Assembly: GCF_041248615.1 (NCBI RefSeq)
Contig: NZ_CP158426.1
DNA length: 64,000 bases
Reading direction: 5' to 3' (one strand)
Origin: Escherichia coli
Lineage (GTDB): Bacteria; Pseudomonadota; Gammaproteobacteria; Enterobacterales; Enterobacteriaceae
Below the pieces are notes generated by a model that saw only the letters and a program-made list of their open reading frames with translations, ran no database searches and was not told the DNA's origin. The stretch's first letter is position 1; every line of letters begins with the position of its first letter. A program made the position numbers and the translations under genes. Below, piece after piece: positions 23,054 through 27,640 of this stretch.

Positions 23054-24346
23054 TTACCTGTTTTCCCATAATCTCAGCATCGCTTTGTGCTCGTCTGTCA
23101 GCACAATCTGCGGGCGTCTGGCTCGAATATAGCTAATCGCTTCATTAACGGTTTTACAGTGTCCGTAACATAACAACCATGCCGCCACCACCAGCGCACT
23201 GCGCGATAATCCCAATGCACAATGGACCAGAACGCTGCCTTGCTCTTCGCGTAATGTTTCCAGCATCGCCACGGCCTGTCGGAGCTCCCCCTCTTCCGGA
23301 ACCACCAGATCCAGCATCGGTACACAAAAATAGAGTCGATCTTTTGTGGCTCGTCCGCGAGGGAATTCAAAGGTGACGTCCAGAACCGCATTCTGTGCCG
23401 GAATATGTTGTGGAAACGCCCCTAAATAAACACCAGCCGTAATTTTGCTCACCGGCTCCAGGCGAAGGCAAAACCAACGCATAGACAGCCACATCCCGAT
23501 GCGCCATGGCAATGTCAGCCAGTAAACGGCAGGCGGGAGTTTCCCTTGACTATCTTTACCTGTTGTTATCGCGCCAAGCCCACCGTACCCACGGCCAATA
23601 ATGAGTAGCGATAATACTGGCCAACATAACCAGACTGACCACCATAACTGAAGCATTATCATTAGCTCCATCAACACAATGCACGCGCCCGCGCCTACGA
23701 CATATGGCAGTGCTATTTTGATTCGACGTTGATCAGGTTTCTGATAATTCCAACGACGGTCGACGGGCACCATCCAGTCAATTAACATACCTACCGCCAG
23801 CCCTGTGATGACATCAATAAAATGATGCTGCCAGGTCGTCAGCGTCGAAATGGCGATGAGTAAAAACCATCCGCCGCAGACTTTACGCCACCTCACAGCC
23901 AGATGCTGACGAAAGTGACGCCAAAGTAGCCAGCAGAGAATAATATGCAGCGAAGGAGACTGGTTATAAGGCAGATCAAACAATTCAAGTTGCGAAAATA
24001 ACCATCCTGTTACCCCACTCACTTCAGGACGGATAAAACTAAACTTCAGCGGATAGAGAAAAAAACCGCAGCAGGCCATTACCGTTGCCAGAATAAGCCG
24101 GTGGACCAGTCGGCGCTGCTCAAATGTCGAGCTACAAACGAACAGCGAAAATCCATATAAAAGATCCAGACTCCAGTAAGGAAAAATAGTCCAGGGAAGA
24201 AAAGGGATCGCCGTTTCCCAACCGAATACCTGACTGGGGATATCATGGTTGTTAAGATCCTGAGTCGCGGTGAACTGATTAAGAAATCCATATGTGAAGA
24301 AGAAAAACGGGGCCAGCAACAATAACCAGCCAGCTCCTTGTAGCAA
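23054..24346 (-). CDS. ynbD: predicted membrane-anchored dual-specificity phosphatase YnbD
   Basis: Track ORF 23054-24445; C-terminal phosphatase signature [10 protein letters not shown]; start placed at an in-frame TTG that gives about 430 aa and avoids overlap with ynbC; start uncertain. Confidence 0.65.
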
Positions 24347-24359
24347 TACGTTCCGGCGT

Positions 24360-26117
24360 TCAGTTGTCACGACGCACCGCCATCGAAACCGTAAAAATGC
24401 CCCACTCATCAATCCGTTGGGTGCATTTATCAAATCCGGCATCATGCACGAGCGAATCCATCTCCCCTTGAGAACGCACGCGCATTACCCACGGTTTACC
24501 ATCTTTATGACTGGTTAATACCCCGGCAATCAGCTCCAGTTGTGGGTGCCACGGCTGCCCGGTGTAGATGAGAATGCCACCCGGCTCGATGGCATTGGCA
24601 AGACCTGCGAGTGAGTTTTTTACCTGCTCATTTTCGGGATAAAGCTCATACAGGCCAGAGACAATCGCCAGCGTAGGCCGCGGAGTTAACGTGCTGAGTT
24701 CTGCCGGATTAAACGCATCGCCCTGTTCAAAACGCGCCCGACCAGACATTCCCCGTTGGGCAATCATCTCTTGCCCTTGTGCAACATTTACCTCACTGTA
24801 ATCACGTAACAAAATATCGCTTACGGCAGGCTCGTTTACCAGCGCATCCAGTACATAGCGCCCATGCCCTGCGGCAATGTCAACCACGCGGACGGCTAAA
24901 CCTTTGGCGTGGAGATCGGCAACGGCTTGTTTAATCAGCATTTGTAAATGGGTTTTGCGCTGGCGAATACCGCGCCAGCCAACACTGTTCAGGTAGATTT
25001 TGTCAATTAAGCGCCCGAATGCGTTACTGCCTGGCGGTTGATTTTGATAGACATAATCCAGGGAACTGCCTGAATCAAAGCCGGTGCTCATTCCGAGATG
25101 CAGGCCCGCAGAGTGCGCCCCGAACAATTTCATCGCCTTTCGCATAAAGCGATACGCCAAATCAACCGGCGATAATGGCACGGGTCCACCTGAAAGGAGC
25201 CGCCAGCGATCCGCTGATGGTCCAGTGCGGTCTTCATGCTGATAATCAAATTTTTGCGACTTGTTAGCATATAAACGACTAATAAAGCTTTGCATTTTTT
25301 CAAATGCCTGCGCCCTGTTCTCTTCACCCAACGTGTCGTGATAAAAGCCTGGCAGCAGATGCAGCTCTTTCAGAGGGCTACGTAATCTCTGATAAAAATC
25401 AATCTGCGGTTGGCGATGCACCACATAGTCATCGCCTGATATCAGAAGTTGCGTGGGGAGTGTAATCGCCGCCGCATCGCTAACAATACGTTCAGACGTT
25501 TTATAGAGATCGAGCAAGATATTGACGGCAATCGCCCGTGTGATCAGCGGATCATTATTGAAACTCGCCACCCGTTGCCGATCGTGGGTCAGATAACGCC
25601 CTTTCACATAGGAATTAATAAAAAACAGACCACGCAGACGATGCCATAACGCCAGCCCAGGACGTGCCAGCGGCACATACAATTTAACCTTAAAGGCCGG
25701 AGATGCCAGCACCAGTCCACGAATAGCAGGCGCATAATCATGAACCCATGTGGCAACCAGCACTGCGCCAACGCTTTGCGCGATCACAACCACCTCTTCC
25801 AGTCCAACCTGGCTGTCGCTGGCAGCAAAACGGACAAATTCATCGACATCCCGCACTGAACGCGCAAGAGATGGGCTATAACCACGCGGCCCCGAACTTT
25901 TTCCATGCCCTCGGGCATCCCAGGCATAAAAAGCAGTATCTGGCATCGCCAGTTCATCAACGATATGTTGTAGACGACCAGAATGTTCATGACCGCGATG
26001 AAATAAGACGATGACCTTTTTCGCCCCGGGCTGTAAAGCGGGCCAGTGCCGATAAAACAACGCTGTATTATCACTGGTGATAAAAAAATGTTCCCCAGGG
26101 ATGCGTGAATTTTCCAT
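24360..26117 (-). CDS. ynbC: alpha/beta-hydrolase plus methyltransferase-like fusion protein YnbC (585 aa)
   Basis: Track ORF; N-terminal lysophospholipase-like hydrolase fold, C-terminal SAM-MTase-like region; recognised as YnbC. Confidence 0.85.
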
Positions 26118-26132
26118 TTTCTCTATTTTCCT

Positions 26133-27029
26133 TCAGTAACAGCAGTAGCGAATAAAATAAAAAAATACCGGAGCGGTGAAAATTAATGAGTCAATCCTGT
26201 CAAGGAGTCCGCCATGTCCTGGTAATAGTTTTCCACTATCTTTAACACCAATATCTCGTTTGATGGCTGACATCACTACATCGCCGCAAAAACCACTAAT
26301 ACCAATTAACAAACCCGTTAATAATGCCTGTAATGTATTTACCGGTGTCAGTAACGGTCCAATAATCAGTGACACAATCATGGTAGTGATTACGCCCCCC
26401 ACCAGACCTTCCAGCGTTTTTCCCGGGCTGACTTTGGGGACCACTTTTCTTCTGCCGCAGGATTTCCCCCATAAATACTGTGCAATATCGTTTGACTCGG
26501 TTAATGCCAAAAGAAATAACACCAGTAACGCCTCGCCCTGGATATTTATGGTTGGCAACATTAACAACCAGGCGGCATGACTCAAGGCGAAAACGATCAT
26601 TATCCAGCCCCAAAAAATGGCGCTCACAGTATGCAGAAAACCGGAGGGGTCCCCCACAAAAACTTGCCCGGTGGCTAATATCAGAAACCCAGCCAAAGGT
26701 ATAAATAACAGATACAGCTCAAAGCAATTAAAACCGATAAACAAATAGTTAAGAGGAATACCCCAATATAACCAACGCGGAAAATGTACAGATATAAGCG
26801 TACAATATTCTTTCAATGCCAGAAAACTTATCAGCGCAAAAAACGTCAACGTCATCCAGCGTGGACCTGAAATCACCATTGAAAAACAAATGACGATGCC
26901 CCACCAGGTACGAATACGTAATGTAACTTCATCCCCTTTTCTCTCCGGTAACCGCCATATCAGAAAACGGTTTATCAGCGTTGCTAAAATTAACAACGCG
27001 AAAAGTGTTGCCAGAGATTTTTCCAGCAT
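26133..27029 (-). CDS. ynbB: CDP-diglyceride synthetase (CdsA) paralog YnbB (298 aa)
   Basis: Track ORF; CdsA-like C-terminal motif GHGGLLDRIDSLIF. Confidence 0.85.
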   Translation of the reverse strand: MLEKSLATLFALLILATLINRFLIWRLPERKGDEVTLRIRTWWGIVICFSMVISGPRWMTLTFFALISFLALKEYCTLISVHFPRWLYWGIPLNYLFIGFNCFELYLLFIPLAGFLILATGQVFVGDPSGFLHTVSAIFWGWIMIVFALSHAAWLLMLPTINIQGEALLVLFLLALTESNDIAQYLWGKSCGRRKVVPKVSPGKTLEGLVGGVITTMIVSLIIGPLLTPVNTLQALLTGLLIGISGFCGDVVMSAIKRDIGVKDSGKLLPGHGGLLDRIDSLIFTAPVFFYFIRYCCY

Positions 27030-27640
27030 TATCTTTCAGCGCTCATAAGAAGCACACTCCGACAACGATTAATCGCAGTCCAGAGAAGCAGAATTGAAGC
27101 AATGCTCCATAAAAGATTATTCCATTGCATCCATTGTGGATAAATGGCAATGGCCAGCCCCCACAAACCAAATATTAACGCGCGATCGCTTTTGCCAAAT
27201 GGACCGACATAACTACGAATACCGTTAATCGTCTGCGCGAGTAAACCGCAAAACTCGGTCAATATGGTGCAAAATAACATGAGTATCACGAGTGATGCAT
27301 TACTTTCAGGTAAAAATAAAAACGGTAAATAGAGCGCAATATCGGAAATAACATCGCCAGTCTCATTCAAAATCGCCCCAAGACGTGTTTGCTGATTGCA
27401 CTCACGCGCCAACATGCCATCCAGCGCATTGAGTGCCATACGAATAAAAAGCACGATGGGCAATAGCAGAAACATGCCAGGATATGGCACCAACGCCAAC
27501 AACAAACCGGTGAGAAGAGAAAGTGCCAAAGCGGCAAGTGTGATCTGATTTGCAGACACTTGCAGCTTATGAAGCCAAAACATCGTCGGCCTTAACAGCG
27601 ACTGAAAGAGCGGTTTTATCTGGTAGAGCGTCATTATCAA
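27029..27640 (-). CDS. ynbA: CDP-alcohol phosphatidyltransferase-family inner membrane protein YnbA (about 203 aa)
   Basis: Track ORF; first gene of the ynbABCD operon; overlaps ynbB start/stop. Confidence 0.85.
   Translation of the reverse strand: MIMTLYQIKPLFQSLLRPTMFWLHKLQVSANQITLAALALSLLTGLLLALVPYPGMFLLLPIVLFIRMALNALDGMLARECNQQTRLGAILNETGDVISDIALYLPFLFLPESNASLVILMLFCTILTEFCGLLAQTINGIRSYVGPFGKSDRALIFGLWGLAIAIYPQWMQWNNLLWSIASILLLWTAINRCRSVLLMSAER

Follow-up and report, generated by a model that had tools for sequence, protein, structure and literature searches.

The Escherichia coli operon ynbABCD, its relation to known CDP-diacylglycerol pathways and to a wider proteobacterial gene cluster

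Phospholipid synthesis in Escherichia coli is usually regarded as fully mapped. Among described systems, those closest to the genes ynbABCD are the two-step pathways for phosphatidyl alcohols, formed by PgsA with PgpA/B/C (or mitochondrial PTPMT1) and by PIP synthase with PIP phosphatase (mycobacteria, Bacteroides, archaeal AIP synthase), the likeness being that the ynb genes also place a CDP-diacylglycerol (CDP-DAG) synthase beside a PgsA/PIP-synthase-like transferase and a phosphatase. PTPMT1 is in addition a precedent for an enzyme of the DSP fold, comparable to YnbD, that dephosphorylates a phosphatidyl-alcohol phosphate. The ynb cluster differs from these pathways in YnbA, which falls far below the equivalog level with Asn at the catalytic positions D1 and D3, in having no inositol-phosphate synthase but a hydrolase-methyltransferase fusion and a sphingomyelin-synthase (SMS)-like domain, and in YnbD, which does not rescue a PGP-phosphatase-deficient strain (PMC7413402).

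The second related system is the CdsA/MPIase pathway, since YnbB has been described as a paralogue of CDP-DAG synthase that is "dedicated to" making the glycolipid MPIase via GlcNAc-PP-DAG (PMC6362211, PMC7018664, PMC11413397). According to these papers YnbB forms CDP-DAG in vitro, does not support bulk phospholipid synthesis, does not complement delta-cdsA and is cold-induced along with MPIase. Overproduction of YnbB raised MPIase ~3-fold and restored it under CdsA depletion; a ynbB knockout left the MPIase level unchanged, and an effect of delta-ynbB became visible when Tam41p competed for phosphatidic acid (same papers). The earlier note had presented ynbABCD as a lipid-type operon without a defined product, which holds for the operon as a whole, no end product having been published, but not for YnbB, which these papers tie to MPIase.

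Gene layout, promoter and transcript end

The locus is the already annotated operon ynbABCD, located at 23054-27634 of the window, the 64,000 nucleotides of E. coli DNA analysed; the annotation is that of a RefSeq record with 100% identity across 22900-27900. All four genes lie co-oriented on the minus strand: ynbA (27029..27634, RefSeq CDS, 201 aa) for a CDP-alcohol phosphatidyltransferase of PgsA/PIP-synthase type, ynbB (26133..27029, 298 aa) for a CdsA paralogue (CDP-DAG synthase), ynbC (24360..26117, 585 aa) for a fusion of a monoacylglycerol-lipase-like alpha/beta hydrolase with a class I SAM methyltransferase, and ynbD (23054..24346, 430 aa) for a PAP2_3-type membrane domain followed by a dual-specificity phosphatase domain. 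Reading the junctions from the sequence revealed a 1-nt overlap between ynbA and ynbB (TAATG, the ynbB start on the ynbA stop), 15 nt between ynbB and ynbC with AGGAAA/GAGAAA inside the gap, and 13 nt between ynbC and ynbD, which has a TTG start at 24346. In other RefSeq records ynbD starts at the GTG at 24370, giving 438 aa and an 11-nt overlap with ynbC. The tight packing of four genes within 23054-27640 reported in the earlier note is confirmed by these junctions (-1, +15 and +13, or -11, nt), which indicate that ynbABCD is most likely one transcription unit. The start given there for ynbA has to be corrected: the annotated gene begins with the ATG at 27634, and the longest ORF opens two codons before it, with the TTG at 27640.

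The intergenic region between ydbD and ynbA (27635..27803, minus strand, 169 nt) holds the ynbA promoter and a regulatory site. Promoter mapping upstream of ynbA, suggested earlier as a check, is already in the literature: the transcription start was found by 5'-RACE, mutagenesis served to map a BglJ-RcsB box whose centre lies 65-68 nt upstream of that start, and the promoter is activated by BglJ-RcsB, with very weak expression when BglJ is lacking; the targets of BglJ-RcsB are typically H-NS-repressed loci (PMC3950696). The same region contains a single copy of the published core wwTTCykA, at 27719-27726(-), which is not statistically meaningful, as the window has 32 occurrences of this pattern where 34 are expected. 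It also contains one sigma-70-like hexamer pair, at 27786-27759. The promoter and terminator scans showed no enrichment over shuffles, and Rfam gave no match within 22000-30500.

A stable hairpin (23007..23053, assigned to neither strand) was identified where ynbD and azoR converge, between their stop codons, with an 11-bp stem as its core (23015-23025 / 23034-23044) and an RNA MFE of -24.9 kcal/mol, shuffled sequences giving -10.8 +/- 2.4 (z -5.8). It has no U-tract and the terminator scan made no call there; the hairpin is possibly a bidirectional transcript end.

Conservation and the wider cluster

When comparing 5426 complete E. coli genomes, at least 80% of ynbABCD was found in 4280, while ~804 (~15%) are without the operon and ~340 more hold it partially, so that ~15-21% miss all or part of it; the viable reduced-genome strain DGF-298 also lacks it. 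The description as conserved in the earlier note holds only with this reservation. That the ynb genes are genuine and evolve under purifying selection is seen from dN/dS, which was 0.14-0.23 in seven out of eight comparisons between gene pairs and 0.54 in the remaining one.

Genomes were scanned with an alignment of nine YnbC sequences, and 80 loci were compared, all containing YnbA and YnbC and spanning Enterobacterales, Pseudomonas, many Betaproteobacteria, one Bradyrhizobium and one Acidobacteria MAG. YnbD is present at 77 of the loci, the usual order being A-C-D, YnbB at 63 and a PlsC-type acyltransferase, which the E. coli locus lacks, at 62. A smaller A-C-D core is found in Proteus, Providencia and Morganella, and a natural YnbA-YnbC fusion protein exists. 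One variant cluster carries an extra patatin phospholipase. In gene content ynbABCD is a trimmed, Escherichia-specific version of a cluster with 5-6 genes that is spread across Gamma- and Betaproteobacteria and elsewhere includes the acyltransferase. This relation is new here, as are the absence from ~15% of E. coli and the features of YnbA and YnbD presented below. No head-group-precursor gene is conserved among the 80 loci, which points to a common metabolite as the acceptor. An inositol head group was rejected on present evidence, with no inositol-phosphate synthase linked to the cluster at any of these loci.

The frequent loss within the species, the absence of an acyltransferase held by 62 of 80 loci, the AT-rich ynbA and ynbB (43-44% GC), the weak expression and typical H-NS repression noted above, and knockouts without robust phenotypes could all be explained if the operon were a silent relic in E. 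coli, kept by drift and H-NS-silenced after its ancestral product was lost with the acyltransferase gene. This is quite improbable given four intact ORFs in ~4280 genomes, the low dN/dS in seven of the eight comparisons, the retention of all checked catalytic residues, the measurable in vivo effects of ynbB in the literature, and the core in Proteus, Providencia and Morganella, according to which A-C-D can stand alone.

The four proteins

The domains proposed in the earlier note were all borne out by Pfam (PF01066, CTP_transf_1, Hydrolase_4 with Methyltransf_20, and DSPc). YnbA is a member of CDP-OH_P_transf, scoring 40.4 bits over residues 29-177 (PF01066, cutoff 22). The canonical CDP-alcohol phosphatidyltransferase signature (PROSITE-type) is D1-x2-D2-G-x2-A-R-x8-G-x3-D3-x3-D4, from which YnbA departs by having Asn at two out of the four catalytic Asp, its motif being N69-x2-D72-G-x2-A-R-x8-G86-x3-N90-x3-D94. 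Both N69 and N90 are invariant in 79 of 79 orthologues and stand opposite D1 and D3 of the best solved relative, the PIP synthase 6h53 of M. tuberculosis (E 5.7e-8). Among the NCBIfam equivalogs the best matches are PIP synthase and archaetidylinositol-P synthase, but the scores for these (75.6 vs 180 and 49.8 vs 170 bits) and for PgsA (27.7 vs 109 bits) are all below cutoff. On these profiles YnbA is nearest to the three enzymes yet a member of none. Its Asn motif is a conserved variant; the possibility of a decaying pseudo-enzyme was rejected since the variant residues are invariant in the 79 orthologues and dN/dS is 0.14-0.20. With two of the four canonical Asp replaced, the chemistry may differ from that of the model enzymes. 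One bold and very unlikely proposal would be that YnbA forms a new subclass of CDP-alcohol phosphatidyltransferases, in which the Asn changes admit an anionic phosphate nucleophile and give diacylglycerol-pyrophosphate-linked products; YnbA, not CdsA/YnbB, would then be a dedicated GlcNAc-PP-DAG-type synthase, and the cluster would build an undescribed methylated or remodelled lipid carrier, with which YnbD, through its SMS-like domain, would decorate some component of the envelope at the periplasmic face.

YnbB belongs to the CdsA family according to CTP_transf_1 (PF01148, 231.6 bits), and a search for the C-terminal signature of this family, S-x-[LIVMF]-K-R-x4-K-D-...-H-G-G-x-x-D-R-x-D, revealed the sequences SAIKRDIGVKDSGKLLPGHGGLLDRIDS and SAIKRDIGVKDSGKLLPGHGGLLDRID, both conserved. 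It shares the catalytic C-terminal half of CdsA, but its N-terminal half is unrelated, and against housekeeping CdsA (NCBIfam PRK11624) it scores 112 vs 385 bits with the match limited to residues 162-291. YnbB is thus a paralogue and not an equivalog, consistent with the failed complementation of delta-cdsA, and differs further from CdsA in being non-essential.

The published link between YnbB and MPIase most plausibly reflects the CDP-DAG synthase chemistry of YnbB rather than what the operon is for. Alternatively the operon is dedicated to MPIase, YnbB supplying CDP-DAG and GlcNAc-PP-DAG while YnbA, YnbC and YnbD perform or adjust subsequent steps, the later steps of MPIase synthesis being unassigned in the literature. 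This would account for the rise and restoration of MPIase on YnbB overproduction, the delta-ynbB effect under Tam41p competition, the common cold induction and the published finding that insertions in ynbB are disfavoured when a strain makes only ECA-PG. The proposal is unlikely, as all this evidence was obtained in a single laboratory and bears on YnbB alone, the knockout leaves MPIase unchanged, Pfam finds no glycosyltransferase in the operon, and MPIase has acetyl and not methyl groups, leaving the methyltransferase without an obvious role. How widely the operon is distributed among taxa and how often it is lost also argue against a dedicated role: MPIase is reported to be essential, yet ~804 of 5426 genomes and DGF-298 do without ynbABCD, and Pseudomonas and Betaproteobacteria, in which the cluster is conserved, are not known to have the ECA-type sugars ManNAcA and Fuc4NAc of MPIase.

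In YnbC the alpha/beta hydrolase spans residues ~1-285 (Hydrolase_4, PF12146, 232.7 bits), with the fold of a monoacylglycerol lipase and a Ser-Asp-His triad, and the class I SAM methyltransferase residues ~296-585 (Methyltransf_20, PF12147, 502.1 bits). When compared with D/E-x-G-x-G-x-G its SAM motif reads D413-I-A-A-G417-H-G419, the D and both G being invariant. YnbC resembles the Hydrolase_4 monoacylglycerol lipases and lysophospholipases (Rv0183, human MGLL, yeast Yju3 and, by source annotation, B. subtilis YtpA) but is permanently fused to the PF12147 methyltransferase and once also to YnbA. Structure searches with the whole YnbC model returned alpha/beta hydrolases only. When PDB sequences were searched with a profile built from the methyltransferase domain, nothing more specific than generic class I methyltransferases came up. 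Weak matches to prenyl-diphosphate methyltransferase and CFA synthase were seen, from which no substrate was inferred.

YnbD was described earlier as a membrane-anchored phosphatase. The phosphatase domain is present (DSPc, PF00782, 96.4 bits, residues ~299-430, with a C-x5-R P-loop and a general-acid Asp), but the eight-helix membrane part preceding it is a second catalytic-type domain and not a mere anchor. Its PAP2_3 score (PF14378) is 21.3 bits, below the cutoff of 27, while the fold, a catalytic His (C2) and His-x3-Asp (C3) are those of the SMS/Aur1 (PAP2_3) branch, and the domain is a sphingomyelin-synthase/Aur1-like catalytic one. From charge distribution and the predicted model, the H-H-D site is predicted to lie on the periplasmic face and the Cys-phosphatase domain in the cytoplasm, a fusion that, like the low score, sets YnbD apart from the head-group transferases sphingomyelin synthase, SMSr and Aur1; E. 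coli is not known to have ceramide. Experimentally, overexpression of YnbD from pTrc-ynbD did not rescue BWTsbacA, BWTetra-TsbacA or BWPGPTs, so YnbD cannot replace C55-PP or PGP phosphatases of PgpB and YbjG type (PMC7413402), and the PgsA/Pgp analogy with glycerol-3-P fails. The searchable literature assigns neither a function nor a product to YnbA, YnbC or YnbD, and no relevant work was found on PF12147/Methyltransf_20 or on the ynb domain combination.

A possible lipid pathway and its meaning

With about even confidence, we propose that ynbABCD is a self-contained CDP-DAG branch making and modifying a minor, condition-specific glycerophospholipid. Expression is low by default and is raised by BglJ-RcsB and cold, both known from the literature. 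YnbB, for which the literature shows CDP-DAG synthesis, would provide a small private pool of CDP-DAG, which YnbA may join to a phosphorylated acceptor. The cytoplasmic phosphatase domain of YnbD would strip off the phosphate, in the role that Pgp, PTPMT1 or PIP phosphatase has downstream of PgsA or PIP synthase, cytoplasmic YnbC could remove an acyl chain and/or methylate the lipid, and the SMS/Aur1-like domain of YnbD may transfer or trim the phospho-head group at the outer face of the inner membrane.

Besides the regulation and chemistry just cited, this proposal is favoured by the use of phosphorylated alcohols among the nearest characterised relatives of YnbA (archaetidylinositol-P synthase, PIP synthase, PgsA), by the tight gene junctions, by the linkage of YnbA and YnbC at all 80 loci and of YnbD at 77, and by dN/dS of ~0.15-0.23. 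Against it count the missing acyltransferase and the absence of the operon in ~15-21% of E. coli, the two Asn of YnbA, the non-rescue by YnbD, the methyltransferase searches, which did not narrow the substrate class, the lack of any ynbABCD lipid product in the literature and the lack of an obvious phenotype on deletion of ynbB or ynbD (for ynbD, PMC7413402).

The lipase-like hydrolase, the two phosphatase-type domains and, outside E. coli, the lysolipid acyltransferase also fit a salvage or remodelling system that deacylates, dephosphorylates, re-acylates and re-activates exogenous or damaged (lyso)phospholipids in envelope stress, as would control by the envelope-stress-responsive RcsB (PMC3950696) and the patatin of one variant cluster. 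Salvage would, however, have no need of a CDP-DAG synthase and CDP-alcohol phosphatidyltransferase, which form a synthesis pair, nor an obvious role for the methyltransferase, and the invariant core is YnbA, YnbC and YnbD, with YnbA and YnbC able to fuse, making this an improbable account.

Under the proposed CDP-DAG branch, the locus would encode a complete second route of this kind in E. coli, with synthase, transferase, two phosphatase-type domains, lipase-like domain and methyltransferase. Handles for its study are offered by the invariant N69 and N90 in YnbA, by the two-faced topology predicted for YnbD and by the 5-6 gene cluster, a more complete system than that of E. coli. Defining the ynb product would also test, through the partner transferase YnbA, the disputed origin of the MPIase precursor and, as the fuller cluster is found in Pseudomonas, Burkholderiales, Proteus, Citrobacter and others, would add a lipid or envelope modification to many Proteobacteria.

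The ynbABCD locus in the window

The window DNA is E. coli chromosome, its region 22900-27900 being 100% identical to NZ_OW967178.1 and matched by 5417 of the 5426 complete E. coli genomes. Gene coordinates were taken from the annotation of NZ_OW967178.1 (window = locus + 18899), with which the ORF list is concordant, and place four genes on the minus strand: ynbA (27029-27634), ynbB (26133-27029), ynbC (24360-26117) and ynbD (23054-24346). The locus is flanked by azoR (22395-23000, plus strand), by hrpA and, upstream of ynbA and co-oriented with it, by ydbD (27804-30110, minus strand). 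The latter, currently annotated as a "DUF2773 domain-containing bactofilin", is separated from ynbA by 169 nt and shares a low GC content (39–45%) with ynbA and ynbB.

Direct reading of the sequence revealed a 1-nt overlap between ynbA and ynbB (TAATG), a 15-nt, partly purine-rich gap between ynbB and ynbC, and a 13-nt gap followed by a TTG start between ynbC and ynbD. The tight packing of four genes described in the earlier note is thereby confirmed, as is the four-gene locus itself, while its proposed end at 27640 is not, that position being a TTG two codons ahead of the ATG annotated for ynbA. The start of ynbD differs among records: the one that is identical to the window has TTG at 24346 (430 aa), other E. 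coli RefSeq records have GTG at 24370 (438 aa), the latter giving an 11-nt overlap with ynbC, and the longest ORF starts with ATG at 24445 (463 aa, overlapping ynbC by 86 nt). In the 438-aa form two extra Arg lie ahead of the first membrane helix.

The genes ynbD and azoR converge, and the 53-nt gap between their stops contains a stable hairpin (23007-23053, -24.9 kcal/mol, z -5.8) with a core stem at 23015-23025/23034-23044. Since a U-tract is absent on both strands, this hairpin may serve to end transcripts from both directions or as a stabiliser, rather than as a classical terminator. An Rfam search of the ynb region gave zero family matches.

Conserved domains and active sites

Pfam agrees with the domains proposed earlier for all four proteins: CDP-OH_P_transf in YnbA, CTP_transf_1 in YnbB, Hydrolase_4 together with Methyltransf_20 in YnbC, and DSPc plus a PAP2_3 match under threshold in YnbD. 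Among named families YnbA comes closest to archaetidylinositol-phosphate synthase, PIP synthase and PgsA, with scores far under the cutoff in each case, and the best solved relative is the PIP synthase of M. tuberculosis (E 5.7e-8). When aligned to this enzyme, YnbA has Asn in place of two Asp of the family signature, the first and the third. Decay of the protein was considered and rejected, as the variant active-site residues are invariant in 79 orthologues (N69, D72, G73, A76, R77, G86, N90, D94 and D98); as judged from sequence, the active site is a conserved variant. YnbB retains the CdsA signature, and the match of housekeeping CdsA is confined to its C-terminal half. In YnbD the K+R counts of the loops alternate according to the positive-inside rule, both in E. 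coli and as a mean of 30 orthologues, and the predicted topology therefore places the H-H-D site (the catalytic His, His and Asp of the sphingomyelin-synthase (SMS)/Aur1-like membrane domain) on the periplasmic face and the Cys-phosphatase (DSP) domain in the cytoplasm.

A fuller cluster in other bacteria and its fate in E. coli

The hydrolase-methyltransferase fusion family comprises 408 clusters (50% identity, E <= 1e-30), with close homologues throughout the Enterobacterales and also in Vibrio fluvialis, Snodgrassella and Orbaceae. A scan with one genome per species gave 80 loci, the ORFs of which were searched with the four E. coli proteins; they derive from Enterobacterales, Pseudomonas, many Betaproteobacteria, one Bradyrhizobium and one Acidobacteria MAG. 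The near-universal core is ynbA-ynbC-ynbD (YnbA and YnbC in 80/80, YnbD in 77/80), and YnbB was found in 63 of the 80, encoded between ynbA and ynbC (Escherichia, Citrobacter) or downstream of ynbD (Pseudomonas, Betaproteobacteria) and missing from the locus of Proteus, Providencia, Morganella and Xenorhabdus. A PlsC-type acyltransferase lies within the cluster in 62/80 loci, in the ynbB-ynbC interval in Citrobacter; in Pseudomonas and Betaproteobacteria it follows ynbD and is directly preceded by a protein of ~150 aa that is present in several loci and has no Pfam or NCBIfam matches (acyltransferase at 6367-7026 in locus L008; acyltransferase at 10610-11230 and ~150-aa protein at 10145-10600 in locus L061). 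The E. coli operon contains neither of these and instead shows the clean 15-nt ynbB-ynbC junction.

A natural YnbA-YnbC fusion of 807 aa (P0123) is encoded on a metagenome contig (L003, 1210-3633), followed by YnbD, acyltransferase and YnbB. One E. coli record holds an 889-aa protein (P0001) joining CTP_transf_1, hydrolase and methyltransferase, which may result from reading through the 15-nt gap. A variant cluster without YnbA (L004, 6970-14629) encodes a YnbC-like protein of 927 aa, the N-terminal 370 aa of which are an unannotated extension, along with a patatin phospholipase, a short-chain dehydrogenase, a homologue of YnbB and a YnbD-like protein of 592 aa. No conserved gene for a head-group precursor was found near the cluster in the 80 loci.

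Of 5426 complete E. coli genomes, 4280 have 80% or more of the operon, ~340 have only a partial operon and ~804 have no operon DNA. In some strains ydbD and ynbABC have been lost in a single deletion, reaching from within pdxI as far as the 3' end of ynbD, as in NZ_CP148323.1 where the scar pdxI'-'ynbD is seen (L002, 6001-6623). The allele in the window is unusual, identity of at least 99% being found in just 2–4 of ~5400 complete genomes and the bulk showing 95–99%. When compared with two other alleles, dS is higher in ynbA (0.21–0.26) than in ynbB-D (0.06–0.11), which suggests a recombination boundary or an older allele at the 5' end of the operon. The AT-rich 5' genes, the weak basal expression and the lost acyltransferase could indicate that the operon is a silent relic in E. 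coli, but this is improbable considering the intact ORFs, the retained catalytic residues and the purifying selection, dN/dS against the two other alleles being 0.14–0.23 for seven comparisons and 0.54 for the eighth.

A putative CDP-DAG branch pathway

In published work, overproduction of YnbB raised the glycolipid MPIase ~3-fold while a knockout alone gave no change; YnbB could not replace CdsA for growth, and a route via CDP-DAG to GlcNAc-PP-DAG was proposed (PMC6362211). As described in reviews, YnbB made CDP-DAG in vitro and restored MPIase but not phospholipids (Sato et al. 2019), and cold induction was reported (Kamemoto et al. 2023). The in vitro assays relied on membrane vesicles and on CdsA8 in partially purified form, and included no ynbA mutant. 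In an ECA-PG-only strain, insertions in ynbB were disfavoured. Mapping by 5'-RACE located the ynbA promoter, which is activated by BglJ-RcsB, activation being abolished by mutating a site centred 65–68 nt upstream of the start (PMC3950696). Transposon disruption of ynbC led to polyphosphate accumulation in one genetic background, though not in that of the Keio collection, and the viable reduced-genome strain DGF-298 has the operon deleted. Other mentions in the literature are transcriptomic or genomic lists.

The link through YnbB could mean that the operon is dedicated to MPIase. This is unlikely, since the operon has no glycosyltransferase, since the cluster is conserved in taxa that are not known to have ECA-type sugars, and since it is often missing from E. 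coli whereas MPIase is reported to be essential.

The best-supported reading is that ynbABCD forms a private CDP-DAG branch pathway. YnbB would supply CDP-DAG, an activity shown in the literature, to which YnbA, judging from its nearest relatives, would attach a phosphorylated acceptor. The cytoplasmic DSP domain of YnbD would then dephosphorylate the product, by analogy with PgsA/Pgp, PTPMT1 and PIP synthase/phosphatase, whereupon YnbC, from its fold and conserved residues, may deacylate and/or methylate it and the periplasm-facing SMS/Aur1-like domain of YnbD may move or trim the head group. In loci having one, the acyltransferase would have the role of supplying the lipid backbone or of re-acylating it. 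YnbD, described as the fourth E. coli PAP2, did not complement strains deficient in C55-PP or PGP phosphatase, and a strain lacking all four PAP2 enzymes is viable (PMC7413402); as loss of PGP phosphatase is not rescued by YnbD, glycerol-3-P is an unlikely acceptor for YnbA.

The ynbABCD locus is already known. The operon described in the earlier note is confirmed, and its reading as an uncharacterised lipid-type operon is supported in part, since the locus carries an annotation and some work on it has been published. Four features from the present comparison make the question of the whole-operon product directly testable: the variant motif of YnbA, the two-faced topology predicted for YnbD, the fuller cluster taken as ancestral, and the fusion of YnbA with YnbC.
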